Below are positions 1 through 24,818 of a stretch of 37,046 nt of DNA, in pieces. Where the stretch lies: the IMG/VR virus record IMGVR_UViG_2896601577_000003. One strand, 5' to 3'. The first letter of the stretch is position 1. Every line of letters begins with the position of its first letter. The notes below the pieces were generated by a model. The model ran no database searches. It saw nothing but the letters and a program-made list of their open reading frames with translations, and was not told the origin of the DNA. The DNA comes from a virus (Duplodnaviria; Heunggongvirae; Uroviricota; Caudoviricetes). Made by a program: the position numbers and the translations under genes.

Positions 1-141
1 TTACTGCTTACACTGTAAGAACGCCGCAAACTCCGCTCCCCAGAAGCTCATCCGTATTTCGCACAGCGAACCGTGCAGCATCCAGATGATGAGGATTGCC
101 GTCACGCAGAACGTGATGGCCGTAAGCGATTTTTGCGACAT
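1..141 (-). CDS. Hok/Gef-family type I toxin (small membrane peptide), chromosomal flank of the prophage
   Basis: 46-codon reverse-strand ORF (ATG 141-139, TAA 3-1), below the ORF-track length cut-off so read by hand: MSQKSLTAITFCVTAILIIWMLHGSLCEIRMSFWGAEFAAFLQCKQ. One hydrophobic helix followed by LCEIR...EFAAFL, the pattern I recall for Hok/Gef peptides. AGGAG about 8 nt upstream. Confidence 0.5.
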   Translation of the reverse strand: MSQKSLTAITFCVTAILIIWMLHGSLCEIRMSFWGAEFAAFLQCKQ

Positions 142-492
142 AGCGCTTGCTCCTTTTTCGGGGAGGCGCTAACCTATCACTTGCTTAGGGTAGACGGTTA
201 GGGCCTCGGTTAAACAAAAATGTTTTCCGGGGCCTTTCCACATCTGGCCTTCAGGTATTCCCTCCGACCATCAGCCGAAAGGCACCCGCGCGTAATCTAT
301 CGCTTTTTTGTTACTCCGGCAATTCTGCTCGTTAATTCTGAGGTAAGGGCAAACTCATCTGATTGTTTCCTCTGTGTGAAGTTGGCAGTTCATGCCACGG
401 GTAGACTGGCCCCCTGAATCTCCAGACAACCAGTATCACTTAAATAAGTGATAGTCTTAATACTAGTTTTTAGACTAGTCATTGGAGTACAG

Positions 493-854: not shown

Positions 855-1717
855 GCTTAGTCAGCCGTTGTCTCCGGGTGTCGCGTGCGCAGTTGCACGT
901 CATTCTCAGACGAACCGATGACTGGATGGATGGCCGCCGCAGTCGTCACACTGATGATACGGATGTGCTTCTCCGTATACACCATGTTATCGGAGAGCTG
1001 CCCACGTATGGTTATCGTCGGGTATGGGCGCTGCTTCGCAGACAGGCAGAACTTGATGGTATGCCTGCGATCAATGCCAAACGTGTTTACCGGATCATGC
1101 GCCAGAATGCGCTGTTGCTTGAGCGAAAACCTGCTGTACCGCCATCGAAACGGGCACATACAGGCAGAGTGGCCGTGAAAGAAAGCAATCAGCGATGGTG
1201 CTCTGACGGGTTCGAGTTCTGCTGTGATAACGGAGAGAGACTGCGTGTCACGTTCGCGCTGGACTGCTGTGATCGTGAGGCACTGCACTGGGCGGTGACT
1301 ACCGGCGGCTTCAACAGTGAAACAGTACAGGACGTCATGCTGGGAGCGGTGGAACGCCGCTTCGGCAACGATCTTCCGTCGTCTCCAGTGGAGTGGCTGA
1401 CGGATAATGGTTCATGCTACCGGGCTAATGAAACACGCCAGTTCGCCCGGATGTTGGGACTTGAACCGAAGAACACGGCGGTGCGGAGTCCGGAGAGTAA
1501 CGGAATAGCAGAGAGCTTCGTGAAAACGATAAAGCGTGACTACATCAGTATCATGCCCAAACCAGACGGGTTAACGGCAGCAAAGAACCTTGCAGAGGCG
1601 TTCGAGCATTATAACGAATGGCATCCGCATAGTGCGCTGGGTTATCGCTCGCCACGGGAATATCTGCGGCAGCGGGCTTGTAATGGGTTAAGTGATAACA
1701 GATGTCTGGAAATATAG
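812..1717 (+). CDS. insD: IS2 orfB (InsD) transposase, DDE catalytic domain
   Basis: 301-aa ORF; sequence matches IS2 InsD as I recall it (…[32 protein letters not shown]…[19 protein letters not shown]…). Confidence 0.9.
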
Positions 1718-1728
1718 GGGCAAATCCA

Positions 1729-1924
1729 ACGGGATGCCCTCTGATGAGTGAATGGGGGAGGCGTGCTTTGAAGTGAATTTGTGGAAGGCTTCCAGTGTTG
1801 AGAAACATACGCCGCATTCTAGATTGTTACACTGATAATACTTTTGTCTCACGGTGTTTGAATCATTTTCCGGACGACTGGTGCGGATACGGGCAGATGC
1901 GCCACAAAGCGGACAACGGAACAT
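1729..1924 (-). pseudogene. ogr: Ogr/Delta-family zinc-finger late-gene activator, interrupted after codon 65 by IS2 (3' remainder at 332-396)
   Basis: N-terminus MFRCPLCGASARIRTSRPENDSNTVRQKYYQCNNLECGVCF has the C-x2-C ... C-x4-C spacing of P2 Ogr. ORF 1688..1924 runs into the IS2 end (the tail [11 protein letters not shown] is IS2-encoded and recurs on ORF 33127..33366). Joining 1729 to 396 across the duplication restores an 86-codon ORF ending TAA at 334-332. Confidence 0.7.
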
Positions 1925-2059
1925 AGCGACCTCTCTTATTGTAGTGCTTGCACTATTCTAGGTTGTATTCTCTAAGATTTAAACATGACTTTCTCTATAT
2001 AATGATTTTTAGCATTAGTTAATAAACGAACGGCACTCTAAGGAGCGCCGTCAAAGATA

Positions 2060-4918
2060 TTATTCTGATGTCACTCTTTGCGAGTGAGCTATTTTTAAAT
2101 CAGCGTTTCCTTCAAATACTACATTCAACTCATAGTTAAGAGTTAGCTTGAATTTTTCTGAGTCACTTTTGATATTCTCTGAAGTGACATTTACTAACTT
2201 ATTATTATCATATTCTCTAATAATTAATTTAGTGAAGTAGTTATCCTTTACCACAAGAGAAAATGGTTGATTAACAAATGGTAAGAAGTAAACCTTACGG
2301 GTACCGGATTCAGTAGTTATGTTCATAGAGCCATCATCATTTTTTCTCATTAGTTCTCTGAGGTTGGGATTATCGAAAAGCATACGATTATATTGCTGAA
2401 AGATCTCTTTACTCATCACAAGAACCAGTTTGCCAGCCAAGTCAGCAGATGATTTTATGTGATCAATCAACATATTGAAATCTTCTATTACGGTATGTTG
2501 CGAACAGCCAGTGCTAAATAAATTTGAAAGTATTATTCTCTGGATGTCCTTGAGAATTAAGTCTGCTTGAATATCACCTTCATTGATATAAGGGATGGAT
2601 TCTATTCCTTCGGCATACGGTTCTTTATCTATCTTAATAGATATCTTATGTTTTGTGAAACAATCGCTAGCCTGCTTAAAATCAATAGATTTGAAAAGTG
2701 AAAGAGGGAGCGTTTTCTTGATGCGTTTACGAAGATGTTCTGATGTTTTACGTGCAGTGCTATCTAGTCGATGTACATCTATGGCAGCATCCTGAAGTCT
2801 CATATCAAGATCTTTCTTTAGCATGTTAATATGCTCTTGAAGCAACTTTCTTAAGTTTTCTTTTTTTGTTTGGAGATCGTCCAATGTTAAAGTCAGCTTG
2901 ATTTTAGTGTATTCGATGGAGTTACAAATTTTTGATAATACTCCAATGAGTCGTTGCTTCTCACGATATGTTATATAGTTGTTTTCTATTGCTTCTTTTA
3001 TTTCTTTTGATACGCTATCGTTCTTGTTAGAAAAAATTAATAATAGCTGAACCCATGATTGTTCCATATCAATAAATCCACAGTCAAAAACATTACTGTA
3101 AACTCTGCCCATCACCATGTCTGTTTTATCATAGTCACGTAAACGCCTTGCTAAACTATTCATCCACCCATTGTGCTCCATATTTTCAGACCATGTCCAC
3201 AGGCAGATTCTAATTAATATCTTGATTAGTTGGCTTGCATTATCAATTTCTTCAGTGGGAGTTTCATATCCACCGGTTTGGTCAATAAGTTTACCCTCTA
3301 AAATAAGTTTAATGTAATGTGTCATTAGTTTGTCAGAAGTATTGATTCTTGATGTCAGATAAAGACATGTGCATATACGCATGTCAGTCAACGCATTTAT
3401 GATGGCAATATTGAACCACTCTCTGTCTGAATTGAAGTTTAGTTTTTTGGATATGAAAAAAACCGGGTTAAAAAGCTGGCCTTTGTAACTGTATTTTTCT
3501 ACCGAATGGCTGTCAATATTCATTGAGTGCTGCCATCGGTTAATAAGATCGACGGCTGTATCAATAGTAGAAGGATCGCGAGTCTGTGTTGCATCAATAA
3601 TCATCGATGGAAGTTCTTGTAGTTGCGTTTTGCAAAATAATTCAAATAAATCTGAATTCTCTGTATTGCAGAAACGAAAGTTTATGCTTTCTTGATATTG
3701 CTCCCAAACAGTGGTATAGGTTCTTAATATACGATTATAACGTGAACGAAGCGAGGCATTTAAGAGTGATTGGTTGTTTCGGAACCATTCTGTCAATATT
3801 GACCATTGTGAACGAGTAATTCCCATATAGATACAAAGTTCATTGCTGATAAGATGTTTTCTATTATTGATAATACGCACTCCGCTCCAAAGACATAATT
3901 CAAAAAATCTTTCAGAAAGATTAATTTTATCCATGGAATTATTTGATATTTTATAAACTTCATCTGAAAACTCATATTGAAAACTCCGTTCAAATAATTC
4001 TGTAGTGATCAGTAAGAAGTTATTGTTGGTATTATCATCTTGAAAAAAATACAAATCGCAGAGATTATTAAAGTTATTAATTAATGCAGAGATAGCATTG
4101 TCAAAACTAATGAGATCAGAATCCCGCAGATACATATACGTATCTGCTGTTATAGCCTGCATTGTAAGACTTACGGAAAAATCTCCTCCTTTAATCGGAG
4201 CCCTATAAAAACATTGCTTAAGTATTTTTATTAATAAGCTGTCTGGTTTGATATTTTTAACGCTAAAAAGTATCTTACCCGTGGATTCTGTTTCTTTTGT
4301 ACGATTATCACCAATGACAAATGACGCAAAATGATTCTTCTTTTTTAGTTGGTAATTAATAAGATTAAGAGTAAGTTGAAAAGGACGGTGATATAAACTT
4401 AACTCATCTTCCTTAGAATAACTGCTAGCCACAGATATGTATTCTCCTTTGTAATCAGCTTGCTTGATTTCTAAATTTGAATAGTTATGTTTTTGATAGA
4501 TAGGGTATAACCTAAGCTTGGCTGAGATTTTGTTACAAATATGGGGCATTACTATTTCGAAGGCAATGTATCGCTTTATAATTATTTGCCGTTTTACATC
4601 ATCAAGAATTTCAAGACTCACGATAAAGAACCAAATAGAAAGAACTATGTTTATCAAAAGCCATAATATGCTGATTAGACAAGCTATACCATAAAGATAA
4701 CTTCCAAAGACAGTTTTAATTAGTACACTGAGAAGTATAAATCCTGATAAGAAAAGCCCGCTGAGTCCAGCAAGCATGAATCCTGAGTAACGCTGATAAG
4801 CAGTTTGGGCTATTTTTCTATCTGCCTTTTTTTGGAATAAGATACTTACTAAACCTATAACAAGGGGTATACAATACCAATAATTGTCAATTGGCCACTT
4901 AAAATGGTTGTTTGCCAT
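2060..4918 (-). CDS. Hypothetical 952-aa membrane-anchored protein, unknown family (cargo gene in AT-rich island)
   Basis: Uninterrupted 2859-nt ORF in visibly AT-rich DNA. The first ~110 aa contain 3-4 hydrophobic helices (CIPLVIGLVSILF; FMLAGLSGLFLSGFILLSVLI; YLYGIACLISILWLLINIVLSIWFFIVSL). The remaining ~840 aa are Lys/Asn/Ile-rich with a coiled-coil-like stretch (…LTLTLDDLQTKKENLRKLLQEHINMLKKDLDMRLQD…). I found no Walker A, PD-(D/E)xK, HEPN or kinase motif by eye. Confidence 0.6.
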   Translation of the reverse strand: MANNHFKWPIDNYWYCIPLVIGLVSILFQKKADRKIAQTAYQRYSGFMLAGLSGLFLSGFILLSVLIKTVFGSYLYGIACLISILWLLINIVLSIWFFIVSLEILDDVKRQIIIKRYIAFEIVMPHICNKISAKLRLYPIYQKHNYSNLEIKQADYKGEYISVASSYSKEDELSLYHRPFQLTLNLINYQLKKKNHFASFVIGDNRTKETESTGKILFSVKNIKPDSLLIKILKQCFYRAPIKGGDFSVSLTMQAITADTYMYLRDSDLISFDNAISALINNFNNLCDLYFFQDDNTNNNFLLITTELFERSFQYEFSDEVYKISNNSMDKINLSERFFELCLWSGVRIINNRKHLISNELCIYMGITRSQWSILTEWFRNNQSLLNASLRSRYNRILRTYTTVWEQYQESINFRFCNTENSDLFELFCKTQLQELPSMIIDATQTRDPSTIDTAVDLINRWQHSMNIDSHSVEKYSYKGQLFNPVFFISKKLNFNSDREWFNIAIINALTDMRICTCLYLTSRINTSDKLMTHYIKLILEGKLIDQTGGYETPTEEIDNASQLIKILIRICLWTWSENMEHNGWMNSLARRLRDYDKTDMVMGRVYSNVFDCGFIDMEQSWVQLLLIFSNKNDSVSKEIKEAIENNYITYREKQRLIGVLSKICNSIEYTKIKLTLTLDDLQTKKENLRKLLQEHINMLKKDLDMRLQDAAIDVHRLDSTARKTSEHLRKRIKKTLPLSLFKSIDFKQASDCFTKHKISIKIDKEPYAEGIESIPYINEGDIQADLILKDIQRIILSNLFSTGCSQHTVIEDFNMLIDHIKSSADLAGKLVLVMSKEIFQQYNRMLFDNPNLRELMRKNDDGSMNITTESGTRKVYFLPFVNQPFSLVVKDNYFTKLIIREYDNNKLVNVTSENIKSDSEKFKLTLNYELNVVFEGNADLKIAHSQRVTSE

Positions 4919-5178
4919 TCGGTTAATGAATGCCTAAACGGGAAATAATGTAAAAGATTATTTTTTATAAATAATTCGTTTAAATATCCAACATAAAGTA
5001 GTACAAATGAAAAAGCTGATATGCAAAGTACTGATTTAACCGGTGAGGATGTTAATCTTATGATGTTTTTTTCAATAAAATTCCATTTTAAATTCGAATA
5101 AAATGGATTTTTAACCATTTTATTACGAACATAGTTCTTTGCTAAAATCTCTGTTGCACTTAAAAATTGTCCAATCAT
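4855..5178 (-). CDS. Small hypothetical membrane ORF (107 aa), either a separate gene or the frame-shifted N-terminus of the 952-aa gene
   Basis: ORF overlaps the 5' end of the large ORF by 64 nt in another frame. Contains a hydrophobic helix (VLCISAFSFVLLYVGYL). Same AT-rich composition. Homopolymers GGGG/AAAA lie in the overlap. Confidence 0.35.
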   Translation of the reverse strand: MIGQFLSATEILAKNYVRNKMVKNPFYSNLKWNFIEKNIIRLTSSPVKSVLCISAFSFVLLYVGYLNELFIKNNLLHYFPFRHSLTEWQTTILSGQLTIIGIVYPLL

Positions 5179-5426
5179 GAATTACTCTTCTATAAAGTGT
5201 GGGTCTACTAACTAAACTGGAACTTTTACTATTGAGTCATATTCCCTTGGACGGGATGGACTGTGAAGATTATACTTGACTTCCTCTGTCATGTGGGAAA
5301 AACATCCGTATTATTGTTAGCATCTGGTTGATGCCCCAACCTCTGACATCTAGTGGGCTGATACATTATCTTTTGTTCTTACTGTCAGTGTAGAAGCACA
5401 TCTCAAAAATAATATTTTTAAGAGAT

Positions 5427-6534
5427 TTATTCTGTTTCTGCTATCCATTCCGGGATTTTTGCTTCAAGTTCAAGCTGCGTGGTAAAGCCGCTGTTATCAA
5501 TGGTGTGCTCGGCTTTTGCAATAATCCAGTCCTGATAATCAATCTCGCTTTTAAAGCCTGTCACTGTGCCATGCATTTCGGGATAGAGTTCTGCACGACC
5601 ACGCGCCAGCGTGATGGAGAATGATGCGGCTCCGCGTTGTAGCTGCTGCCACTTTGCCGCCGCTGCGCGTCTTGCTGCCTGCTCGTTCTGATAAGTCTTG
5701 CGTAACACAAACACGTTGCCTTCCGCACCTTCCATATAGTCGCCTTCCCGACTGCTACTTTTCTCCTTTTTGGGTTTTGGCGGTTTGCGGCGTTTCACGC
5801 TGACTTTTTTCTTTTTCCCGTAATTAAGATCAAGCCAGTAGGCGCGTACCCCCGTATACGCCTCGCGGTCAGCAATGCGGAACTGATGGCGATCGCCGCT
5901 GCTGCGTGTAATGGCGAACGAGGGCAACGGCTGCCCCTGTGCGTTCACGCCACCACCTGGCATGATGAATAACAGATTGCCGCTTTTTACCGTGGCGATT
6001 GCTCCCAGCATTTCCGCCATGCGCGTAAGAAAGGACATGTCGCTTTCTTCGGTCTGGTCGGCGTGGTCGATTTCGATATCCATCAGCATTTCGCTGATTT
6101 GCGGTTTCAGACCGTATCGATGAGCGATGGCGGATACCACACGCTCAACGGTCACATCATGCCAGGACACCTCACGTTTAACGTTAAATTCATCCCGAAA
6201 ATCTGCGCTTCTGGCTGAAACAGTCAGCCTGTCCGGCGGTCCTTCGTGAGCGATTTCATCAACAATGTAAGTGCCTTTTTCTGTCAGCGGTTCCCCTTTC
6301 CAGCCAATGAGAACCGTCAGACGCGGCCCCGTGGCGGTAGCTGCAACTGACCATCCGCATCATCCAGCGTGATGGTGAGCTGGTCCGCCTCAAATCCCCG
6401 GTTGTCGGTCAGTTACAGGCTCATCAGGCGCTCCGCCACGCCTGACAGCGTTTTACCCTCCGAGAGAATATCAAAATCCGGCATTTTCACGGGGGCCGTG
6501 CCCTGACTGAGCAATTGCATGGTGGTGTCGGTCA
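5427..6534 (-). pseudogene. D: P2 gpD-like tail protein; C-terminal 247 codons intact, N-terminal third frame-broken
   Basis: ORF 5427..6170 matches the P2 D C-terminal region as recalled (…ATVKSGNLLFI…ITRSSGDRHQFRIADREAYTGV…REGDYMEGAEGNVF…SGFTTQLELE…). ATG at 6534-6532 gives MTDTTMQLLSQGTAPVKMPDFDILSEGKTLSGVAERLMSL, then an in-frame TAA and frame changes before 6170. Confidence 0.8.
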
Positions 6535-6692
6535 TCTACTCCCTCCCTGTGCGGCATGGTCGCATGTGCGTGCGGAGGGGGTTACTGCTTTTTGTTGTCG
6601 CCGTGGCGGGAGAACGGCGCAGGGGTGAGATTACGCGCGTGGTGGGTGATGATTGTTGCTGAATCATTTAACGGATACAAGGGGCTGAAGCT

Positions 6693-7877
6693 ATGAGTGA
6701 AACTCGTTTTCATGGTGCCCGTGTTACGGAGAATACCGACCTGGTAACAGCGATTAACGATGTTGATTCCAGCGTTATCGGTATCGTGGCAACGGCGGAT
6801 GATGCGGACGCGAAGCTGTTCCCGCTGAACAAGCCCACACTGCTGACCCGCGTCAATGACGTGCTGGGAAAATGCGGGACAACGGGGACGCTTTATCGTG
6901 CGCTTAAGGCCATCGCAGACCAGGTGAGCACAAAGGTGATCGTCGTTCGCGTGGCTGAACACAAAGAAGAAGACGGAAAGACGCAGGATCAACTGGTTAT
7001 CGGTGGTTCTGAGGATGACGGCAGCTATACGGGGATGTATGCGCTGCTTGTTGCAGAGCAGGATGAAAGCATCGGATACCGTCCGCGTATTCTGGCCGCG
7101 CCGGAGCTGGACACGGAGGCGGTAACAAAATCCCTGTGCGTGATTGCAGATAAACTGCGCGCGTTTGTGTATGCCTCATGTCATGGCTGTAACACGATGG
7201 CCGAGGCAATTACCTACCGCCAGAAATTCAACGAACGTGAGGTGATGCTCTTATGGCCGGACTTCATCGCCTACAACCCGAAAAATGGCAAAAACGAAAC
7301 GTTCCCCGCGCCTGCCTATGCGTGCGGCCTTCGTGCGTACATTGACCATGAACAGGGATGGCACAAATCGCTGTCCAACGTTCCGGTTAAAAATGTGCTG
7401 GGGATGTCGAGGCATGTGTTCTGGTCGTTGCAGGCCGAAGACAGCGATGCCAACAGCCTCAACAACAAAGAAATCACGACCATTATTCGTCGCAACGGGG
7501 TCCGCTTCTGGGGTAACCGCACACCGGAAACGAACGCCTACATCTTTGAGGTGTATACCCGAACCGCACAGGTGCTGGCTGATTCAATTGCGGAAGCGCA
7601 GTTTGAAACCATCGACAGTCCACTGACGCCTGCGAATGTGAAGGATGTTATCAGTGCCATCAGGGCAAAACTGGATTCACTGGTGACTGCCGGGAAACTG
7701 ATTGGCGCGGAGTGCTGGTATGACGTGGTGGATAACAGCACCACGGATTTACGTCAGGGACGTGTGCGTATTCGCTACAAATATACGCCCGTTCCGCCAC
7801 TGGAAGACATGGAGCTTTACCAGACGTTTACTGATGAATACTTTGAACCCGCATTTGCGGTGCTGGGAGGTGCCTGA
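6693..7877 (+). CDS. FI: Contractile tail sheath protein (P2 FI-like)
   Basis: 394 aa; motifs …FPLNKP…RILA…LRAF…REVMLLWPDF…EQGWHKSLSNV…RFWGNRT…TRTAQV…YTPVPPLE… match the P2 FI sheath family. AAGGGG RBS upstream. Confidence 0.9.
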   Translation: MSETRFHGARVTENTDLVTAINDVDSSVIGIVATADDADAKLFPLNKPTLLTRVNDVLGKCGTTGTLYRALKAIADQVSTKVIVVRVAEHKEEDGKTQDQLVIGGSEDDGSYTGMYALLVAEQDESIGYRPRILAAPELDTEAVTKSLCVIADKLRAFVYASCHGCNTMAEAITYRQKFNEREVMLLWPDFIAYNPKNGKNETFPAPAYACGLRAYIDHEQGWHKSLSNVPVKNVLGMSRHVFWSLQAEDSDANSLNNKEITTIIRRNGVRFWGNRTPETNAYIFEVYTRTAQVLADSIAEAQFETIDSPLTPANVKDVISAIRAKLDSLVTAGKLIGAECWYDVVDNSTTDLRQGRVRIRYKYTPVPPLEDMELYQTFTDEYFEPAFAVLGGA

Positions 7878-8353
7878 TGGCTGTGCCAAAACATCTTCGC
7901 TTTTTTACGCTGTTTGTGGATGGTGAAAACGAAGTGGGTAATGTGACGTCCGTCACTCTGCCTAAGCTGACGCGCAAAACCGACAGCTACCGGGGTGGTG
8001 GCATGATGGGTGCGGTAAGTATTGATCTCGGTCTGGACGACTCCGCGCTTGATGCGAGCTTTGTCATGGGGGCGCAGTTCGTGAGCTGTTCCTTAAGTAT
8101 GGCGGCACGATTGACGGCACGCTGCTGCGTTTTGCGGGTGAATACTACACCGATGCAGAAAGCGACCTGTATGAAGTCGAAATGCGCGGACGTGTGACGG
8201 AAATTGATATGGGGGAAGCCAAACAGGGCGAAGCCACATCACACACTTACGCCATTAAAACACCTACTACAAGCTGAGTGTTAACGATCGCCCGTTGTGG
8301 GAGATTGACCTGCTGAACTTCATTTACCGGAAGGACGGGGTAATGACTCCAAC

Positions 8354-8731
8354 TTATTGATAGTGTTTTATGTTCAGATAATGCCCGATGACTTTGTCAT
8401 GCAGCTCCACCGATTTTGAGAACGACAGCGACTTCCGTCCCAGCCGTGCCAGGTGCTGCCTCAGATTCAGGTTATGCCGCTCAATTCGCTGCGTATATCG
8501 CTTGCTGATTACGTGCAGCTTTCCCTTCAGGCGGGATTCATACAGTGGCCAGCCATCCGTCATCCATATCACCACGTCAAAGGGTGACAGCAAGCTCATA
8601 AGACGCCCCTGCGTCGCCATAGTGCGTTCACCGAATACGTGCGCAACAACCGTCTTCCGGAGCCTGTCATACGCGTAAAACAGCCAGCGCTGGCGCGATT
8701 TAGCCCCGACGTATCCCCACTGTTCGTCCAT
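8354..8731 (-). CDS. insB: IS1 InsB (expressed as InsAB' by -1 frameshift)
   Basis: 125-aa [43 protein letters not shown]… matches IS1 InsB. Confidence 0.9.
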
Positions 8732-8775
8732 TTCCGCGCAGACGATGACGTCACTGCCCGGCTGTATGCGCGAGG

Positions 8776-9051
8776 TTACCGACTGCGGCCTGAGTTTTTT
8801 AAGTGACGTAAAATCGTGTTGAGGCTAACGCCCATAATGCGTGCAGTTGCCCGGCATCCAACGCCATTCATGGCCATATCAATAATTTTCTGGTGCGTAC
8901 CGGGTTGAGAAGCGGTGTAAGTGAACTGCAGTTGCCATGTTTTACGGCAGTGAGAGCAGAGATAGCGCTGATGTCCGGCAGTGCTTTTGCCGTTACGCAC
9001 CACCCCGTCAGTAGCTGAACAGGAGGGACAGCTGATAGAAACAGAAGCCAC
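8776..9051 (-). CDS. insA: IS1 InsA
   Basis: 91 aa [46 protein letters not shown]… matches IS1 InsA. Confidence 0.9.
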
Positions 9052-9219
9052 TGGAGCACCTCAAAAACACCATCATACACTAAATCAGTAAGTTGGCAGC
9101 ATCACCGAAGGACGGCAAGGACATTGTGCCCGATCGCATCCGTTCCGCGCTTGGGCTTGGCTGATAAGTAATATGCTGGCGGCGCAGTGCGTCGCCTCTG
9201 ACTGAAAAGGAGACAACAG

Positions 9220-9594
9220 ATGAAAGACATCGATACTGAAACCCGGAATAACACCGTGGCGGATAATGTGACGGCAGTTGAGGATATGGCTGTCGAACGT
9301 GGCGTAAAACTGACCCGACCAATTGAGCGTGGTGGCGAAAAAATCACGTATGTGGAGATCACCGGGGCTATTGAGCAGGCTGGATCCCTGCGTGGTCTGT
9401 CGCTGTCTGATGTGCTGAATCTGAAAGCGGATACCATGTTCACGCTGTTGCCTCGCGTGACCTCGCCACGACTGGATGAAGTGATGATTAAAAAAATGTC
9501 GTCACGCGATTTTATTCAGTTGTGCGCTGTGGCTGTAAATTTTATGAGCGAGCCAGACTCTGGCGCGAAGAGCGTGCAGGAGACGGCAGCGTAA
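9220..9594 (+). CDS. E: Tail assembly chaperone (P2 gpE-like)
   Basis: 124-aa ORF between the tube and tape-measure genes. A downstream ORF in the -1 frame (open from 9492 to 9758) overlaps its 3' end, the conserved chaperone frameshift arrangement. Confidence 0.8.
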   Translation: MKDIDTETRNNTVADNVTAVEDMAVERGVKLTRPIERGGEKITYVEITGAIEQAGSLRGLSLSDVLNLKADTMFTLLPRVTSPRLDEVMIKKMSSRDFIQLCAVAVNFMSEPDSGAKSVQETAA

Positions 9595-9758
9595 TCACCC
9601 TGGTGTGCTTTGAGCACATCGAAGATCTGGTGGCGGATATTGCCGCCATTTTTAACTGGTCGCCCGCCGAAATCTTCATGATGACGCCCTGCGAAGTGGT
9701 TAGCTGGCGTGAGCGAGCGGCACTTCGTAGCGGGAATGCAGACAATGAAGACTCTTGA
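9492..9758 (+). CDS. E' extension reached by programmed -1 frameshift (E+E' fusion)
   Basis: -1 frame is open from 9492. A run of seven A (9490-9496, …ATT AAA AAA ATG… in the E frame) lies exactly where the two frames overlap. Confidence 0.55.
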   Translation, partial: KNVVTRFYSVVRCGCKFYERARLWREERAGDGSVITLVCFEHIEDLVADIAAIFNWSPAEIFMMTPCEVVSWRERAALRSGNADNEDS

Positions 9759-12551
9759 TATCCGGGTCGCTTTCAGCGCCGTTGACAGGCTGACCCGGCC
9801 TGCCGAAAACGCCCGCCGCCTGATGGGGCAGTTTGGTGACTCCATCCAGCGAACGCAGGGGGCGATCAAAAATCTCGAGCGTCAGGCGCGATCATTTGAG
9901 CGCGCCCGTGACGCTGTCAGTAAAGCGGATGCGGGCATCGTGAAAGCACGACGCCAGCTTAACGCCCTTAATCAGTTACAACGCACGGGTACAGTGCTCA
10001 GCGAAAAACAACAAAAGCTGATGCAGCAGTTAAGCACCCGGCTTGAACGCCTGAATGAATCGCGCACACGGGAAATTCAGAAAATGCGGGAGCTTGGCGG
10101 AGAGCTGAAACGCCACGGCATTTCCCTGACAGGCAGCGATAACACCATCCAGCAGGCCATCAGACGCACCGAACAGTACAACAACCAGCTTGAACGCGAA
10201 CGGCAGGCGCTTGCGCGTGTAACACGGGCGCGTGAGCGGTATTCGCGCGCGCAGGAAACAGCGGGAAAACTGAAAACAGGTGGTGCGCTGGCAATTGGTG
10301 CGGCAGCGGCGGGCGGCTATGCTGCCGGGCGTTTTTTGCAGCCTGCGATCGGGTTCGGCAAAGAGATGTTCCGCGTTCAGGCACTGACGCGAATCGACCA
10401 GAACAGCCCGCAGTTTAAGGCGCTGCGTGAGCAGGCGTTAAAACTTGGCTCTGAAACGCAGTTCACCGCAGGCGATGCCGCCAGTGGACAGGCATTTCTT
10501 GCAATGGCTGGCTTTACACCACAGGCCATTCAGGCTGCGCTCCCTGGCGTACTGAGCATGGCAACGGCTGGCGGTATGGACCTCGGTGAGACGGCGGATA
10601 TTGGCTCAAATATTCTGACGCAGTTCGGTCTTTCTGCTGACCAGATGGACCGGGTCGGCGACACACTCACCGCAGCGTTTACCCGTACCAACACTGACCT
10701 TCGCGCACTGGGTGAAACCATGAAATATGCAGGTCCGGTGGCGGGTAAGCTGGGAATATCTCTGGAGCAGGCCGCAGCGATGGCGGGCGTGCTGGCGAAT
10801 ATGGGTATCAGGGGGAGTGATGCTGGTACGGCAATGCGTGCCAGCCTGGCTCGTCTGGCATCACCGCCAAAGGCGGCAGCAGAGGCGCTGAAAGAGCTTG
10901 GCGTGTCTGTCTCGGATGCCGGGGCAAAATGCGCCCGATGGAGGATGTGCTGGCTGACCTTTATAAAGCTACCCGCAAATACGGGGAAGTTGACCGGGTA
11001 TCGTTCTTTAAGGACATTGCCGGAGAAGAGGCTTTCACATCATTTATGGCCCTCGTTGATGCGGCAGGTGACGGCTCCTTACCCAAACTGAGAAAAGAAC
11101 TTGAAGGCGCGCGCGGTGAGGCTGAACGCACGGCAAAGGTTATGGCCAACAACCTTGACGGCGATCTGAAATCACTCAGCAGTGCATGGGAAGGGTTGCG
11201 CATCCGCATTGCAGATCTGATTGACGGTCCGCTGCGTTCTGTCACGCAGTGGCTCACGCGTGTGGTATCAAAGGTGACGGCGCTGGCGCAGGCCCATCCC
11301 GCACTGACGCGCCAGCTACTGATTGCAGGCGGTGCATTGCTGGCAATGACTGCAACGGTTGGCTCGTTGTCGCTGGCTATTGGTGTGCTTGCTGGCCCGC
11401 TGGCAAAACTGCGTCTTGGTTTTTCCCTCCTGACCGGATCAATGAATGCTGTCAGGGTTCTGCCAGCACTATGGGGAATGGTGACGGGTTCCGTTTCTTT
11501 ACTGGGAGGCGCTATCGGGGCGTTGTTCAGTCCGGTTGGTCTTATCGTGGCTGCGCTTGCCGGAGCTGCCGTTCTTATCTGGAAATACTGGGATCCCATC
11601 AGGGCATTTTTTGCCGGGGTGTTCAGCGGGATTATGGAAAGGCTGACCCCGTTGCGCGAAACATTTGAACGGTTTGGTCCTGTTTTTGACGCAATCGGGA
11701 GTGGGATCAGCCAGGTGTTTAACTGGTTTAAATCGCTGCTGTCACCGATGGAGTCCAGCAAGGAAACTCTGGATAAATGTACCAGTGCTGGCGAGATATT
11801 CGGTAACGTTCTTGGCGGTGCGTTACAACTTGTTCTGACACCTGCAAAAATGTTGCTGGATACGCTGGCGTGGATACTTGAAAAGCTTGGTGTGCTTCCG
11901 GATGAAGCGGAAAGGGCGCGCAAGAAAATCGAAGACGCACAGCGTGCGGCCATTCTTCAGGACAAGGTTGCCTTGCTTCAGGGGGACCTGGCGAAAATCA
12001 ATCCGCCGAAGCCTGTGGAAAATGGCAATGGCACCGGAGGTGATAACCCCAAAGACAATAAACCGCTCACAGACAGCAATACCGGTACGCTGCGCAGACT
12101 CAGCAAAATTGCTGATAACACAGGTAAGCTGGTTGAGGAGACGAAAAAACGCATTGGCCCCGGCGATATTGTCTTTAAAAACCTGCCCCGAGCACTTGCT
12201 GTTCGTGGGGAGTGGCAGGAGCGGAAGATTGCGCAGGTCAGTAAGCCTGCCCCCGCAATTAATATCACACCCGTGGTTCCGGCTCCGCTGCCTCCGGCGC
12301 TGGTCCCTGTTGTTGCGGCCAGCTCCCGCCCGGTGGCGGAGGCTATACGATCTCCAGTGGCATCAGTTCCTGTAACTTCCCGTAACCGGGAGCCTGTTGC
12401 CTCCGGATTTGGTGGTGAAATTCATGTTCATCTGCATAACGTTGTTACGCAGAATCCCCGCGAACTGGCGAAACTGGTCGGTGAAATGGTCAGGGCAGAA
12501 ATGGAACGGCGCGCCCGTGCCGGGCGTGGCTGTTTTTACGATAAAGATTGA
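9736..12551 (+). pseudogene. T: Tail tape-measure protein (P2 gpT-like), split into two overlapping ORFs by a frame break
   Basis: ORFs 9709..11091 and 10929..12551 together give an ~810-aa Ala/Gly-rich protein with a hydrophobic central segment, typical of tape-measure proteins. The frames switch between about 10900 and 11090. Confidence 0.85.
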
Positions 12552-12557
12552 GGAGTC

Positions 12558-13052
12558 ATGGCCATGATGATGATCTACGGCATGTTTGTTTTTGAGCTGC
12601 GCACGCTGCCGCATCAGCAGTTACAGCAAAACAAAAGCTGGCGGCATGTGAAAAATGAACGCGTTAACCGTTCAGCAAGCTGGCAGTATATCGGTGCAGG
12701 TGATGATCGCATCGTTCTTTCTGGTGTGCTTTATCCTGAAATTACAGGTGGCGAAGTGTCGCTGTCGCTGCTGACCACGCAGGCGTATACAGGACGACCC
12801 TGGCCTTTGATTGATGGCGTCGGGCAGATTTACGGCATGTATGTCCTGACTGAAACGAATACGACCCGCTCCGAGTTTGATCGCTACGGTAAGGCGAAAA
12901 AGATAGAATTTTCACTGACTCTTGAACGCTGTGATGAGGATTTGCGGGAGCGCCTGCAATCCTCATCGTTCAGTGATATGCTGTCCGGCTTCAAAGATAA
13001 GGTGACATCATCTCTTAACAGCGCGGCCAGTTCAGTTAAAGGGCTGTTCTGA
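12558..13052 (+). CDS. U: Tail protein (P2 gpU-like)
   Basis: 164-aa ORF immediately after the tape-measure gene; sequence is consistent with the P2 gpU family as recalled. Confidence 0.8.
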   Translation: MAMMMIYGMFVFELRTLPHQQLQQNKSWRHVKNERVNRSASWQYIGAGDDRIVLSGVLYPEITGGEVSLSLLTTQAYTGRPWPLIDGVGQIYGMYVLTETNTTRSEFDRYGKAKKIEFSLTLERCDEDLRERLQSSSFSDMLSGFKDKVTSSLNSAASSVKGLF

Positions 13053-13065
13053 TTTAACACAAAAA

Positions 13066-13097
13066 CCGCTAATGGTCAGATTAGCGGTTTTCATTTT
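13066..13097. terminator. Bidirectional hairpin between convergent U and invertase genes
   Basis: Perfect 12-bp inverted repeat AAAACCGCTAAT / ATTAGCGGTTTT with a 6-nt loop, flanked by T-rich tracts on both strands. It overlaps the invertase stop codon. Confidence 0.5.
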
Positions 13098-13697
13098 CCT
13101 GAGTCTGCCCGGTTGTTTCTTCAGTCTGTATATCGCCTACAGGGTGATAACGATAAATCGTCGATGTGCCAATGCCGTAAATTATTGCCAGTTGTTTTCT
13201 GTCGTGCCCGTTTTTGATTAGCCTTGCTATTTGCTCATGCTGTTCTTTTGTCAGCTTCGGTCGACGTCCGCCTGTGCGCCCCTTGCGCGCGCTGCCGCCA
13301 GCCCGGCCAGTGTACGTTCAACAATTAATTCACGTTCCATTTCAGCCAGGGCACCCATCACGTGGAAGAAAAAACGCCCCATTGGAGAAGATGTGTCTAT
13401 GCTGTCGGTCAGACTGCGAAAATTAATCCCTCGCTCCCGTAGTTCCCCGACGAGAGAAATCAGATGTTTCATGCTTCGCCCGAGGCGATCCAGTTTCCAG
13501 ACAACCAGCGTGTCACCTTTTTGAAGGCGCTTTAAAGCGCGTTTTAATCCCGGTCGGTCTGTCTTTGTCCCGCTTAATTTATCTTCAAATATTTGTTCAC
13601 ATCCTGCACAAACAAGAGCGTTTCGTTGCAGGTCTGTATTCTGGTCATTTGTTGATACCCTTACATAGCCAATCAGCACACTGAATCTCCCGTCCAA
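13081..13697 (-). CDS. Serine DNA invertase (Hin/Gin/Pin/Cin family), one frame break near the catalytic-domain/HTH junction
   Basis: N-terminus …LIGYVRVSTNDQNTDLQRNAL…DTLVVWKLDRLGRSMKHLISLVGELRERGINFRSLTDSIDTSSPMGRFFFHVMGALAEMERELIVERT… is typical of this family. The C-terminal HTH (GRTGGRRPKLTKEQHEQIARLIKNGHDRKQLAIIYGIGTSTIYRY) is read in a shifted frame from about 13255. Confidence 0.85.
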
Positions 13698-13733
13698 AAG
13701 CGCAAATCATGCCATGCAGGCCAGAAACGGCCA

Positions 13734-13759
13734 TTATTTAAAACCTCGGTTTACAGGAA
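13734..13759. repeat. gix/hix-like 26-bp crossover site (left boundary of the invertible tail-fibre cassette)
   Basis: TTATTTAAAACCTCGGTTTACAGGAA closely resembles the Mu gix site as I recall it, and is a 21/26 inverted match to the site at 17187-17212. Confidence 0.7.
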
Positions 13760-14620
13760 ACGGTAAACAGGGCTGGTAACGCCGTGCAAAAAAATGGCGA
13801 TACCTTGTCCGGTGGGCTTACTTTTGAAAATGACTCAATCCTTGCCTGGATTCGAAATACTGACTGGGCGAAGATTGGATTTAAAAATGATGCCGATGGT
13901 GACACTGATTCATACATGTGGTTTGAAACAGGCGACAACGGCAATGAATATTTCAAATGGAGAAGCCGCCAGAGCACCACAACAAAAGACCTGATGACGC
14001 TGAAATGGGATGCACTAAATATTCTTGTTAATGCTGTCATTAATGGCAGTCTTGGAGTTGGTTCGACGAATGCGTTAGGTGGTAGCTCTATTGTTCTTGG
14101 TGATAATGACACCGGATTTAAACAGAATGGAGACGGTATTCTGGATGTTTATGCTAATAGTCAGCGTGTATTCCGCTTTCAGAATGGAGTGGCTATTGCT
14201 TTTAAAAATATTCAGGCCGGGGATGGTAAAAAATTCACGCTATCCAGCTCCAACAACTTCACAAAGAATGCAACGTTTAATTTATGGGGTGCTTCAACCC
14301 GTCCAGTAGTTGCAGAGTTAGGCGATGAGGCAGGATGGCATTTCTATAGCCAGCGAAATACAGATAACTCGGTAATATTTTCTGTTAACGGTCAGATACA
14401 GCCCAGCAACTGGGGGAATTTTGATTCACGCTATGTAAAAGATGTTCGCCTGGGTACGCGTGTTGTTCAATTGATGGCGCGTGGTGGTCGTTATGAAAAA
14501 GCCGGACACGCAATTACCGGATTAAGAATCATTGGTGAAGTAGATGGCGATGATGAAGCCATCTTCAGACCAATACAAAAATACATCAATGGCACATGGT
14601 ATAACGTCGCACAGGTGTAA
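13760..14620 (+). CDS. Alternative tail-fibre C-terminal variable domain (Sv), currently in the silent orientation
   Basis: Open frame from the crossover site; ends …IQKYINGTWYNVAQV, parallel to the other variable domain (…IQYCINGTWYNAGSI). Followed by a tail-fibre assembly gene. Confidence 0.7.
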   Translation, partial: TVNRAGNAVQKNGDTLSGGLTFENDSILAWIRNTDWAKIGFKNDADGDTDSYMWFETGDNGNEYFKWRSRQSTTTKDLMTLKWDALNILVNAVINGSLGVGSTNALGGSSIVLGDNDTGFKQNGDGILDVYANSQRVFRFQNGVAIAFKNIQAGDGKKFTLSSSNNFTKNATFNLWGASTRPVVAELGDEAGWHFYSQRNTDNSVIFSVNGQIQPSNWGNFDSRYVKDVRLGTRVVQLMARGGRYEKAGHAITGLRIIGEVDGDDEAIFRPIQKYINGTWYNVAQV

Positions 14621-14623
14621 ATT

Positions 14624-15151
14624 ATGCAGCATTTAAAAAATATTAAGTCCGGAAATCCAAAAACAAAAGAACAATATCAGCTAACAAAGAATTTTGATGT
14701 TATCTGGTTATGGTCCGAAGACGGTAAAAACTGGTATGAGGAAGTAAATAACTTTCAGGACGACACCATAAAGATTGTATACGACGAAAATAATATTATT
14801 GTTGCCATAACCAAAGATGCCTCAACGCTTAATCCCGAAGGCTTTAGTGTCGTTGAGATTCCAGATATAACAGCCAATCGTCGCGCCGATGATTCAGGGA
14901 AGTGGATGTTTAAGGACGGAACTGTGGTTAAGCGGATTTATACAGCAGACGAACAGCAACAACAGGCCGAATCACAAAAGGTCGCGTTGCTTTCTGAAGC
15001 TGAAAGCGTTATTCAGCCACTGGAACGCGCTGTCAGGCTGAATATGGCGATGGATGAGGAACGCACACGACTGGAGTCATGGGAACGCTACAGCGTTCTG
15101 GTCAGCCGTGTGGATACAGCAAATCCCGAATGGCCACAAAAGCCTGAGTAA
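14624..15151 (+). CDS. Tail-fibre assembly protein (Tfa/U type) for the silent fibre variant
   Basis: 175 aa, N-terminus [40 protein letters not shown]…; paralogous to ORF 15180..15713 on the opposite strand. Confidence 0.8.
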
Positions 15152-15179
15152 AAATTAAGGCCCAATATCGGGCCTTCTC

Positions 15180-15713
15180 TCATTCTGGTTGTTCGGGAAA
15201 CGTTACTGGCAGGCTGGAGGTGTCTGTAGATTCGACTTTCTGCGCATAGAGCATCCACTCGGTTAATTTTTGTTTATTCTCGTCGGAAATGATGCCCAGC
15301 CGTAGCTGTGAGTCCCATAGCTGGGTTTTATCCCTGACAAGTTGCAACAGGCTTTGCTTTTCATTTTCCGCTTGTTGCCTCTGCTCTTCCTCGGTATAAG
15401 TTCGCTTTATCACTACGCCATCTTTGAACAACCATTTCCCCGAAATATCAGCCCGGCGATTTGCTGTAATATCAGGTAATTCAACGACGCTTGCGCCTTC
15501 CGGATTAATTGCTGAAACATCCTTTTCAATACAAATAATAACGCCGTTATGGTCATAGACCATTTTCAAAGTGTCTGGCTGGAAATTCTTTTGTTCCTCA
15601 TACCAGTTTTTTCCATCATCTGAATAAAGCCATTTGATGTTAAATTGCTTTGTTAGCTGGTATTGCTCTTTTGTTTTAGGGTTGCCAGCAGTAATGTTTT
15701 TTAAGTGCATCAT
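15180..15713 (-). CDS. Tail-fibre assembly protein (Tfa/U' type) for the currently joined fibre variant
   Basis: 177 aa [40 protein letters not shown]…; convergent with its paralogue, as in Mu/P1-type invertible fibre cassettes. Confidence 0.8.
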   Translation of the reverse strand: MMHLKNITAGNPKTKEQYQLTKQFNIKWLYSDDGKNWYEEQKNFQPDTLKMVYDHNGVIICIEKDVSAINPEGASVVELPDITANRRADISGKWLFKDGVVIKRTYTEEEQRQQAENEKQSLLQLVRDKTQLWDSQLRLGIISDENKQKLTEWMLYAQKVESTDTSSLPVTFPEQPE

Positions 15714-15715
15714 CG

Positions 15716-17186
15716 TTAAATACTCCCCGCGTTATACCACGTCCCATTAATGCAATACTGAATTGGCCTTGCCTGTGTTGTATCAATTAATTCATCACGG
15801 TTTCCGTTAACTGAACCCGTAACGACATAACCTGACCTGTCAGACCAGCCGGGACCATTCCATGTCTGAACAGATGACAGACCGCCAAGGCGAATACCTG
15901 TAATAAACCTTGAGTTACATTCTGCCCGCGTATATGCACCAACATCTCCCGCTGAAGGTTTTCGTGTCGTGGTATAGAAATCTGACCAACCTAATTCAAC
16001 CCGGTAATGACTCCAACTTATTGATAGTGTTTTATGTTCAGATAATGCCCGATGACTTTGTCATGCAGCTCCACCGATTTTGAGAACGACAGCGACTTCC
16101 GTCCCAGCCGTGCCAGGTGCTGCCTCAGATTCAGGTTATGCCGCTCAATTCGCTGCGTATATCGCTTGCTGATTACGTGCAGCTTTCCCTTCAGGCGGGA
16201 TTCATACAGTGGCCAGCCATCCGTCATCCATATCACCACGTCAAAGGGTGACAGCAAGCTCATAAGACGCCCCAGCGTCGCCATAGTGCGTTCACCGAAT
16301 ACGTGCGCAACAACCGTCTTCCGGAGCCTGTCATACGCGTAAAACAGCCAGCGCTGGCGCGATTTAGCCCCGACGTATCCCCACTGTTCGTCCATTTCCG
16401 CGCAGACGATGACGTCACTGCCCGGCTGTATGCGCGAGGTTACCGACTGCGGCCTGAGTTTTTTAAGTGACGTAAAATCGTGTTGAGGCTAACGCCCATA
16501 ATGCGTGCAGTTGCCCGGCATCCAACGCCATTCATGGCCATATCAATAATTTTCTGGTGCGTACCGGGTTGAGAAGCGGTGTAAGTGAACTGCAGTTGCC
16601 ATGTTTTACGGCAGTGAGAGCAGAGATAGCGCTGATGTCCGGCAGTGCTTTTGCCGTTACGCACCACCCGTCAGTAGCTGAACAGGAGGGACAGCTGATA
16701 GAAACAGAAGCCACTGGAGCACCTCAAAAACACCATCATACACTAAATCAGTAAGTTGGCAGCATCACCATTCAACCCCATAACCATCACGAGCCGACCT
16801 GTAGGAAATGCCACCATTTTTATAATTCACACGGAATTGTACGGCAGGACAGCTACCAGCATTTATATTAAAGTGAAGAATTAATGTAGATGCACCACCA
16901 ATCAGGGCGTTATATGCACTACTATCCCAATTCCATCCAATGGATGTATCACCATTAACAGTATTACCTGTTTGTCGGAGTGCAAATGCATTGACATTTT
17001 TGGCACTAATTGAAATATCGCTAGAACCATCAAAACCAACTCCAGCAATTTTTCGTGCTGTTTTCAGCTTTGTTGCAGTAGCGGCATTGCCGGACAGTTC
17101 CCAGAAAGGCCACCGCTGAATGTTTGTCGATTGGTCCAGGTATTCGCTGTACTGAGTAACGGTATTTTCTCCCCGCTTGTGCCGAG
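15716..17186 (-). pseudogene. Tail-fibre variable C-terminal segment (Sv') joined in frame to H, interrupted by IS1 copy 2
   Basis: Reading on from H through the crossover site gives …AKNVNAFALRQTGNTVNGDTSIGWNWDSSAYNALIGG…DGYGVE | IS1 | …GWSDFYTTTRKPSAGDVGAYTRAE…IQYCINGTWYNAGSI, stop at 15718-15716. Confidence 0.7.
16003..16769 (-). mobile_element. IS1 copy 2 inserted inside the invertible tail-fibre cassette
   Basis: Same termini as copy 1. Perfect 9-bp target-site duplication ATTCAACCC at 15994-16002 and 16770-16778. InsB intact (16018..16395); insA frame-broken at a C-run (ORFs 16440..16667 and 16532..16714). Confidence 0.95.
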
Positions 17187-18476: not shown

Positions 18477-19008
18477 GCTTAATCGCCTGGATAAATGGTA
18501 ATAACTTCACCGTCATAAGTTGCCGCCGCTGCGAAAATATCCCCGGAATTTCCTGAATGATATTCAGCCCTGTCATGTGGCGGCTGACCGGGCGGGCATC
18601 AGCAATCAACCGCTCCATTTCCAGATACATTTCCTCCGTCACGCCACTGTCCAGCGTGCCGACTTCAACGGTAAATGTTCCCGGTTCTCCGCCGAACTCC
18701 CACCACTCAGACACGCGAATGAGGTATCCCAGCGGCTCAATGGCCCGGCGCAGTGCGCTGATGGTCCCTTTGTGTCGGTGTATCAGCCATGCATCACGAA
18801 TAACCTGTCGCTTTGTCTCTTCCGGCCAGTTGCGATCCCAGCGGTCAACGGAAAACGCCCAGGCGAGATAAGGCAGCAGATGCACCGGGCAGGTGTCCGG
18901 CGACCACAGCGTGTTGAGGTCTACCGGAATGTCTGTAATGCGTGTTCCGACGGCTTCGGCACAACGCATGAAATTGCTGGCTGATGGTGGTAACAACGAA
19001 TTACTCAT
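18451..19008 (-). CDS. I: Baseplate protein (P2 gpI-like)
   Basis: Start MSNSLLPP… at 19008 overlaps the J stop (ATGAGTAA); the ORF-track start at 19041 is an upstream in-frame extension. Position between J and H. Confidence 0.75.
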   Translation of the reverse strand: MSNSLLPPSASNFMRCAEAVGTRITDIPVDLNTLWSPDTCPVHLLPYLAWAFSVDRWDRNWPEETKRQVIRDAWLIHRHKGTISALRRAIEPLGYLIRVSEWWEFGGEPGTFTVEVGTLDSGVTEEMYLEMERLIADARPVSRHMTGLNIIQEIPGIFSQRRQLMTVKLLPFIQAIKHEYHNTKI

Positions 19009-19896: not shown

Positions 19897-19899
19897 GAT

Positions 19900-20250
19900 T
19901 TACTCCCTCAGCGTGATGGTTAATTCAACATTCTGCATGGTCTGCATGACAGTGCCCGACAGCGTCACCCCGGCGCGGCCTCCTGCCTTCCAGACAACGT
20001 CGATAGCGTCCAGGGCAATGCGGGGTTCCCATCGTGTCAGCGCAATCACGGCAGCACTCATGCATTGCAGACGCGTGGTGTTATTCATGGGTTCGTCAAT
20101 CAAATCAGGCACAAGGCTGCCATATTCCCGTCGCATAACCCGGCTTGCCAGCGGGGTGGTCAGGATGTCCCTGACTGACTGTTTCAGGTGCTCCATATCG
20201 TTCAGGTTTCCCGTTCCGTCCGGGTTCATTCCTGTGTAGCGGGTTGTCAC
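19900..20250 (-). CDS. W: Baseplate wedge protein (P2 gpW-like)
   Basis: 116 aa, GTG start overlapping the V stop (GTGA); position and size match P2 W. Confidence 0.8.
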   Translation of the reverse strand: MTTRYTGMNPDGTGNLNDMEHLKQSVRDILTTPLASRVMRREYGSLVPDLIDEPMNNTTRLQCMSAAVIALTRWEPRIALDAIDVVWKAGGRAGVTLSGTVMQTMQNVELTITLRE

Positions 20251-23172: not shown

Positions 23173-23174
23173 TG

Positions 23175-23869: not shown

Positions 23870-23972
23870 GGGGTTCACTCCTGAAAAAAAATCGGGCGGT
23901 GGGTGCGCGGTGTAAACGGTCACGGAGTCAAACCGGAACACCGCGCACGCCGCCCGCTGACGGGGTCAGTCG

Positions 23973-24773: not shown

Positions 24774-24818
24774 TTTTTCTCTCCGTTACAGGCGGGCATG
24801 ATGCCCGCCGTGAGTTGA

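Follow-up and report, generated by a model that had tools for sequence, protein, structure and literature searches.

The IMG/VR record IMGVR_UViG_2896601577_000003, a stretch of 37,046 nt that we refer to as the window, holds a P2-like prophage whose tail gene D and ogr gene are set apart by a cargo island with a single gene. The intact form of this gene, which is broken in the window, encodes a predicted inner-membrane protein ending in a domain with the predicted fold of HK97 capsid proteins. Because phages, satellites and plasmids carry it in their cargo and defence slots, the protein is a strong candidate for an anti-phage protein of a new kind. The D gene ends at 5427 and matches Pfam Phage_GPD; ogr starts at 1924 and matches Ogr_Delta (4.2e-14). 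The same junction is empty in the sister prophage of E. coli N54 (L013), where only 42 bp lie between the two genes. Homology of the window to this empty junction extends to 1965 and picks up again at 5431, which places the insert at 1966–5430 (3,465 bp); it begins where the stop codon of D ends, and the 41 bp preceding ogr are preserved. An initial annotation, made from the letters alone, had described some 3.5 kb of AT-rich, horizontally acquired cargo between the D stop and the ogr start, with coordinates that prove right to ∼ 40 bp. The GC content in 400-bp windows is 0.28–0.37 across ∼ 2000–5400, compared with 0.53–0.57 in the phage genes on both sides. This contrast, and the empty or differently filled junctions of sister prophages, bear out the acquisition from outside. 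Window 1966–5430 is thus a horizontally acquired cargo cassette in the D–ogr slot, and its single gene comes with a leader and a terminator-like hairpin. The features of the cassette are listed below (TM, transmembrane; ORF, open reading frame).

1966..5430, no strand: AT-rich cargo, bounded on one side by the stop codon of D and on the other by the 41 bp that remain in front of ogr (alignment to L013; GC content).
5179..5430, minus strand: non-coding leader with a promoter-like site at 5394..5365 (consensus match only).
2060..5178, minus strand: disrupted cargo gene, now a 107-aa and a 952-aa ORF, 1,039 aa when intact (comparison with intact relatives).
4610..5040, minus strand: predicted membrane module with four TM helices (hydropathy, AlphaFold2 helices, conservation, positive-inside pattern).
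4864..4867, minus strand: frameshift site, C5 to C4, at Pro105–Leu106 in TM2, first altered codon 106 (alignment to intact copies).
3995..4489, minus strand: predicted α/β module, residues ∼ 231–395 (AlphaFold2 model).
2720..3994, minus strand: predicted helical-repeat (α-solenoid-like) region, residues ∼ 396–820 (AlphaFold2 model).
2063..2719, minus strand: predicted C-terminal HK97-fold (capsid-protein-like) domain, residues ∼ 821–1039, modelled as 815–1039 (fragment model, Foldseek).
2029..2052, minus strand: terminator-like hairpin 8 nt past the stop codon (10-bp stem with six GC pairs, weak T tail).

The island is found in just five of 5,426 complete E. coli genomes (megablast). The backbone prophage is common, with 93 genomes covering at least 80% of window 5400–25000. 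In the P2-like prophages of E. coli the D–ogr junction is a recurrent variable site: it is empty in many of them and otherwise occupied by GmrSD, PIN, DUF3800, YecA or hypothetical genes. Examples of the junction as a cargo site are the P2-like prophages of E. coli NZ_CP028379, NZ_AP018808, NZ_CP010221 and NC_018661. The cassette has the attributes of a moron, that is, a fixed junction that is empty or differently filled in relatives, an atypical base composition and its own putative expression signals. The D–ogr junction is not named as a hotspot in Rousset et al. (PMC9122126) or in bioRxiv 10.64898/2026.02.27.708500 and deserves to be added to the list of P2 cargo sites.

The one long ORF that the initial annotation had assigned to the island (2060..4918, minus strand, 952 codons) is present. 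At ∼ 33% GC, stop codons have a frequency of ∼ 0.075 per codon, and the chance of a 952-codon open frame is ∼ 1e-32; because of this base composition, an accidental origin is essentially impossible. The 952-aa protein, however, is only the 3′ part of a broken gene. Intact relatives have a single coding sequence of 3,120 nt for 1,039 aa, with a start equivalent to window 5178 (E. coli L001 and L002; an intact coding sequence of this length is seen in L001, L002 and L014–L019). Of eight closely related viral contigs, seven also have the 1,039-aa form; L021 breaks off at residue 659, and L020 carries a frameshift. The window is without one C of a run of five (TAC CCC CTT becomes TAC CCC TTG, window 4864–4867) and reads TACCCCTTG at this site, compared with TACCCCCTTG in L001, L014 and L021. 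The gene is thereby split into a 107-aa ORF (4855..5178) and the 952-aa ORF. Since the exact 107-aa product is recorded on four contigs, one of them a 4.7-Mb chromosome, the frameshift represents a genuine allele rather than an isolated sequencing error. The window copy of the 1,039-aa gene is a pseudogene, and cloning 1925–5426 would therefore test a dead allele.

Two more family copies carry independent frameshifts, L020 (an IMG/VR contig, gene 8001–11116) and L043 (3426–6592). The L043 frameshift lies in an A/T run within TM4, in a copy that adjoins the lysis cassette of a lambdoid prophage. Two of the three independent frameshifts (window, L020, L043) are located in homopolymer runs within TM helices. 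Such recurrence might stem from the burden of a toxic effector, from on/off switching or from decay alone. Soluble or split versions of the family were considered on account of matches without the TM part and were rejected for the one case examined, L043, which is the frameshift in TM4. Another such match, P0289, begins at a contig end.

The intact E. coli protein has no match in Pfam, NCBIfam (E ≤ 1), PADLOC 2.0 (E ≤ 1) or PHROGs, and none among PDB sequences even with a family profile, in keeping with the earlier view of an unknown family. A tblastn search of 50,697 phage records gave no match. Scanning 45 diverse full-length members singly against PADLOC and Pfam produced single-member noise only; the lone PADLOC match among them was PD-T7-3, at a noise-level E of 0.005. 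Profile searches agree with the initial annotation that the protein has no NTPase, nuclease, HEPN, kinase or Sir2/TIR domain, and a pattern search found no Walker A or HNH motif. Loose HEPN-like and PD-ExK-like regular-expression matches were discarded because they did not overlap with conserved residues. No paper describing the family was found in the literature searched, and the newly named P4 systems of bioRxiv 10.64898/2026.02.27.708500 bear no resemblance to it.

A word-indexed search returned 183 relatives of 1,030–1,070 aa from Enterobacterales, none with a Pfam domain. The closest protein cluster consists mainly of Shigella and E. coli entries, many of them fragments. An exhaustive search with a profile hidden Markov model yielded 502 clusters (50% identity), 150 of them with E ≤ 1e-30; nearly all span the profile from end to end, with lengths of 1,030–1,150 aa. 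We also scanned genomes for the family, with a method that reaches only members keeping two TM motifs, so that the taxonomic range is a lower bound. Members are present in at least 15 genera; those in the scan include Erwinia, Citrobacter, Phytobacter, Pseudoalteromonas, Shewanella, Alteromonas, Vibrio, Enterovibrio, Psychrobacter, Acinetobacter, Kangiella, Aliikangiella, Bermanella and, from the Desulfobacterota, a Desulforhopalus. A member is carried on 377 plasmid records, 216 of which are conjugative. The ratio of non-synonymous to synonymous substitution rates (dN/dS) among close intact copies is 0.36–0.59. These data argue for a real family under selection, found in Gammaproteobacteria and beyond.

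Four TM helices are located at residues ∼ 47–67, 95–115, 134–155 and 167–190 by hydropathy and appear as helices in the AlphaFold2 model. Lys plus Arg counts over 63 diverse members (N-terminus 8.3, loop 1 1.8, loop 2 3.0, loop 3 0.4, post-TM4 4.4) give a clean positive-inside pattern, which argues that the N-terminus and the ∼ 850 C-terminal residues are both cytoplasmic. The intact product is thus predicted to be an inner-membrane protein with a cytoplasmic N-terminus, four TM helices and ∼ 850 cytoplasmic residues. The two loops on the periplasmic side, of 27 and ∼ 11 residues, are short and show little conservation. TM2–TM4 are the most conserved part of the protein, with a mean pairwise identity of 0.34 versus 0.15–0.21 elsewhere; P105 and N177 are invariant, Q96 and W173 nearly so. 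Such conservation appears to exceed the needs of a passive anchor. The initial annotation had given the ORF three to four N-terminal TM helices; the intact protein has four, and since the frameshift is inside TM2 the 952-aa product would lack TM1 and half of TM2.

The full-length AlphaFold2 model (39-sequence alignment) has a mean predicted local distance difference test score (pLDDT) of 79 and a predicted template-modelling score (pTM) of 0.66. It comprises a helical membrane bundle, an α/β module (231–395), a long helical region (396–820) and a C-terminal module that is α/β and β-rich. What had been described as a coiled-coil-like segment is, in this model, a large helical-repeat region. The conserved polar residues outside the membrane sit in the helical region: W492, E493, D544, W549, N595, D599, R657, R692 and Y694. 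The SGRxYSG loop (689–696) is among the best-conserved soluble motifs, with R692 invariant and Y694 nearly invariant, and is a candidate functional loop for gating, binding or cleavage. It falls within residues 686–699 (window ∼ 3083–3124), the only long low-confidence loop of the model (pLDDT < 50).

Structure prediction and a Foldseek search reveal at the C-terminus an HK97 capsid-fold domain that had been invisible in the initial annotation. Residues 815–1039 were cut from 42 diverse members, and the fragment alignment was modelled alone (pLDDT 94.1, pTM 0.88). The predicted model has the A and P domains and the spine helix by which the HK97 fold is recognized. Foldseek against BFVD gave 159 matches at E ≤ 1e-3; all named ones are capsid or structural proteins, with TM-scores of 0.4–0.57. 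No capsid or encapsulin sequence family (Pfam Phage_capsid, Linocin_M18, PHROG capsid) was matched, including by the 42 C-terminal fragments, and a profile of the domain against PDB sequences returned noise only. A lack of sequence similarity is common among HK97-fold proteins themselves. The assignment of the fold is solid for a prediction, and common descent from a phage capsid gene is plausible. No conserved partner gene, either for head morphogenesis or for cargo, was seen at any locus examined.

The family gene is always single, and its neighbours differ between loci. One member is carried by a P4-like element with a D5-type primase, HNH, SRAP, FRG and DUF3800. Another lies in an island with a CAP12/Pycsar-type TIR protein, Rpn and an integrase; the same TIR neighbour is found in Erwinia. 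The member of a Pectobacterium islet adjoins a KAP NTPase, an integrase fragment and SIR2_2, that of a lambdoid prophage is placed between nin-type genes and the lysis cassette, and those of IncF plasmids are close to replication genes. Neighbours on the IncF plasmids are a type I HsdR, an S-4TM pair, AAA ATPases (one with a UvrD helicase), RES, HNH and P-loop NTPases. Most telling are three genomes with distant homologs, a viral contig, Kangiella and Aliikangiella (L022, L029, L035), where the gene (X) is embedded in a type I restriction–modification (R-M) operon in the order hsdM–hsdS–X–hsdR; this embedding is absent for the window copy and most other loci. Uncharacterized genes at P2 and P4 hotspots frequently prove antiviral: six of eight randomly chosen unknown P4 hotspot loci protected against phages (bioRxiv 10.64898/2026.02.27.708500). 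The contexts of R-M operons, the P4-like element, the lambdoid prophage and plasmid islands strengthen the case for a defence function.

Several further regularities of the neighbourhoods were observed. A small ORF together with a ∼ 299-aa CAP12/Pycsar-type TIR protein recurs beside members in elements that are not related to each other (L007 6149–7328; L040 9413–10592; L024 11859–12965); the TIR protein is annotated ‘nucleotide-binding protein’ in L040, and Erwinia has a single TIR protein of 369 aa. A divergent VapBC pair is located exactly 345 bp upstream of the gene in three genera, in L004 (pIP1206), L040 (Enterobacter) and L042 (Cronobacter), which suggests a conserved VapBC–X block on IncF-type plasmids. 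A position in the plasmid leading region (establishment or anti-defence) was looked for and not found in the seven plasmid loci inspected.

From sequence and context we consider it somewhat better than an even bet that the family protein is an anti-phage protein. Our preferred reading, to which we assign a probability of roughly 0.45, is a single-gene, membrane-anchored anti-phage protein that senses head assembly through its capsid-like domain. The fast-evolving cytoplasmic part would be the sensor: the capsid-like domain, with help from the solenoid, would engage the head-assembly machinery of the infecting phage, either by joining phage capsomers or by binding proteins that normally dock on the capsid protein. 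The resulting clustering or conformational change would switch on the conserved 4TM module, which would permeabilize or depolarize the inner membrane and so cause a late abortive response before progeny are finished. A conserved effector combined with a variable sensor is the usual pattern of immune proteins. One may speculate further that this is the first bacterial immune protein with an integrated capsid-fold bait, in which pentamer- or hexamer-type clustering gathers 4TM modules into a pore; this extension of the model is rather unlikely as it stands. The logic of an integrated decoy is known from plant nucleotide-binding leucine-rich repeat receptors (NLRs).

Several points weigh against this reading. 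The case for defence draws on genomic association and on structures that are predictions. A search of PADLOC-DB 2.0.0 with the E. coli protein gave no family at E ≤ 1, and neither pore-forming nor enzymatic motifs were recognized. The three R-M-embedded cases may be one event or one mobile module, because their HsdM proteins are 74–79% identical. Several distant homologs, in Shewanella, Psychrobacter, Acinetobacter and Pseudoalteromonas, are solitary insertions among housekeeping genes and have no neighbour linked to defence. Since the capsid of the carrier prophage is likewise of the HK97 fold, the protein would need some way to spare its own phage. Finally, the repeated frameshifts in the window, L020 and L043 fit a dispensable gene equally well.

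Alternatively, the protein might poison assembly in a non-abortive manner, its capsid-like domain co-assembling with the capsid of the invader, much as SaPIbov5 Ccm does, and tethering or capping the shell at the membrane while the cell survives. The TM module would then be an anchor and oligomerization platform, yet one would hardly expect a passive anchor to be better conserved than the rest of the protein and to have helices with invariant polar residues, and a stoichiometric agent must compete with a very abundant capsid protein. We regard this reading as unlikely. Superinfection exclusion, in which genome entry or an envelope step is blocked at the inner membrane and the cytoplasmic domains are regulatory or structural, would suit an integral inner-membrane protein encoded by a single gene on prophages, satellites and plasmids. 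Known superinfection exclusion proteins are small, however; here the prediction puts ∼ 85% of the protein, the capsid-like domain among it, in the cytoplasm, the periplasmic loops are short and poorly conserved, and a position within R-M operons is typical of post-entry defences. These properties make exclusion at the envelope improbable. Equally improbable, in our view, is a role outside immunity as a membrane-tethered, self-assembling capsid-fold scaffold (encapsulin-like or a lattice) for element maintenance, membrane organization or stress tolerance. Such a scaffold would be at odds with the lack of a conserved adjacent cargo-enzyme partner, the neighbours being different everywhere, and of a Linocin or encapsulin sequence family match; the patchy, mobile, AT-rich and often pseudogenized distribution fits accessory conflict genes better than housekeeping.

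Public entries offer yet another identity. Relatives are named ‘hypothetical’, ‘MFS transporter’, once with a name beginning ‘Nicotin…’ and once ‘chromate transporter’ (the homolog on Pantoea plasmid NZ_CP071407), and TM helices are indeed present. There are just four of them, at residues 47–190 of 1,039, compared with ∼ 12 in two six-helix bundles for MFS; searches of Pfam and NCBIfam with the E. coli protein gave no MFS or other transporter family at E ≤ 1, nor does any such family turn up repeatedly in the 45 members, SLAC1 and SdpI each matching one member only (E ∼ 0.002–0.007). Domain scans and TM count thus contradict the MFS identity, and a transporter is scarcely credible. The labels (WP_264716223 and relatives), supported neither by profile match nor by TM count, are propagating through ∼ 700 Shigella and E. 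coli entries. Within the closest E. coli/Shigella cluster these ∼ 700 sequences are wrongly or emptily annotated, and so are hundreds of copies on plasmids of E. coli, Klebsiella and Enterobacter.

The prophage around the cassette is itself damaged. IS2 has inserted at 402–1728 inside ogr with a 5-bp target duplication, since window 1–401 corresponds to L001 11605–12005 and window 1729 onward to L001 12001 onward. The two genes flanking the cassette are as follows.

1729..1924, minus strand: 5′ part of ogr, interrupted by IS2, with its 3′ end at ∼ 332–401 (Pfam Ogr_Delta, 4.2e-14; IS2 matches; L001 alignment).
5427..6535, minus strand: gpD with a 1-bp deletion at ∼ 6326 (Pfam Phage_GPD; alignment to the intact 1,110-nt D of L002).

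The 78-aa ‘ogr’ ORF (1688..1924) runs on into the IS2 end. Compared with the intact 1,110-nt gene of E. coli RIVM_C040348 (L002), the deletion breaks gpD into three ORFs; D is also truncated in E. coli VG38-53E1 (L001). The tail-tube gene is disrupted near its 3′ end by an IS1 copy at ∼ 8339–9103, with ORFs 8354..8731 and 8776..9051, which together with the lesions in ogr and D marks the prophage as cryptic or decaying and its host as rich in IS elements, as Shigella is. The window thus probably derives from Shigella or from an E. coli lineage with a comparable IS load. A Hok/Gef-family gene lies in window 1–141, as it does in E. coli relatives with the intact gene. Transcription of the sheath-to-U tail block (FI at 6693–7877 onward, plus strand; region 5427–13057) is divergent from that of D and ogr (minus strand), which differs from the canonical P2 gene order. 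Since this arrangement is conserved in the E. coli relatives L001 and L002, and reportedly in UTI89 and H10407, it is a feature of the lineage and not a local rearrangement.

Among known systems, HK97 capsid proteins and encapsulins share the predicted fold of the C-terminus with no detectable sequence relationship. Instead of a free shell subunit, the fold here forms a compact domain of 225 residues that terminates a 1,039-aa membrane protein, and no portal, scaffold, protease or cargo-enzyme genes accompany it. To our knowledge, the HK97 fold has so far been seen only in the capsids of viruses, gene-transfer agents and satellites and in encapsulin shells. The libraries and literature searched contained no account of a capsid-fold domain within a membrane or defence protein of bacteria. 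SaPIbov5 Ccm is a satellite-encoded homolog of capsid protein that co-assembles with helper-phage capsids (PMC8569155). It is soluble, capsid-sized and serves packaging of the satellite, whereas the family protein is membrane-anchored, four times larger and also found in plasmids and R-M operons, where packaging is irrelevant.

PrrC, an abortive-infection anticodon nuclease, is embedded in the EcoprrI type I R-M operon and guarded by the R-M complex. Its likeness to the family is one of genomic logic alone, three distant members occupying the same hsdS–hsdR slot; there is no similarity in sequence, domain or fold, the family has no NTPase or nuclease domain, and the window copy is outside R-M. 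With RexAB of phage lambda, Kiwa (KwaA/KwaB), PifA of the F plasmid, CapRel-SJ46 and Lit the family would share the proposed logic of a phage structural trigger and membrane integrity as target, as well as carriage on prophages and plasmids. RexB and KwaA have four TM helices, like the family module, and PifA is triggered by the T7 capsid protein. We know of no capsid-fold domain in RexAB, Kiwa, PifA, CapRel or Lit, and the literature searched showed none. The family matches no PADLOC model and, unlike these systems, would combine sensor and putative effector in one polypeptide. Lit is a capsid-sensing defence, and capsid sensing has also been described for CapRel-SJ46 (PMC9712102). The P2 cargo genes old, tin and Z/fun (PMC9122126; bioRxiv 10.64898/2026.02.27.708500) are likewise AT-rich, non-essential single genes at fixed junctions, and like the family gene they are swapped for unrelated cargo in sister prophages. 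They differ in their junction, which is gpA–gpQ or the tail-fibre/sheath site and not D–ogr, and their proteins are unrelated.

If the family is antiviral, it would represent a new principle of sensing, in which the most conserved phage protein is structurally mimicked, and would provide a model, open to direct test, that couples capsid assembly to membrane disruption. If it has no antiviral role, it would still be a new cellular exaptation of a hallmark viral fold and would bear on the exchange of capsid proteins between viruses and cells. Either way, an HK97-like fold is predicted as the cytoplasmic tip of a widespread membrane protein, including in clinically relevant plasmids and prophages, and were the bait reading true this would be a third cellular use of the fold beside capsids and encapsulins. 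Judged by the libraries and literature searched, the family and its architecture appear to be new, and they belong to none of the systems compared here.

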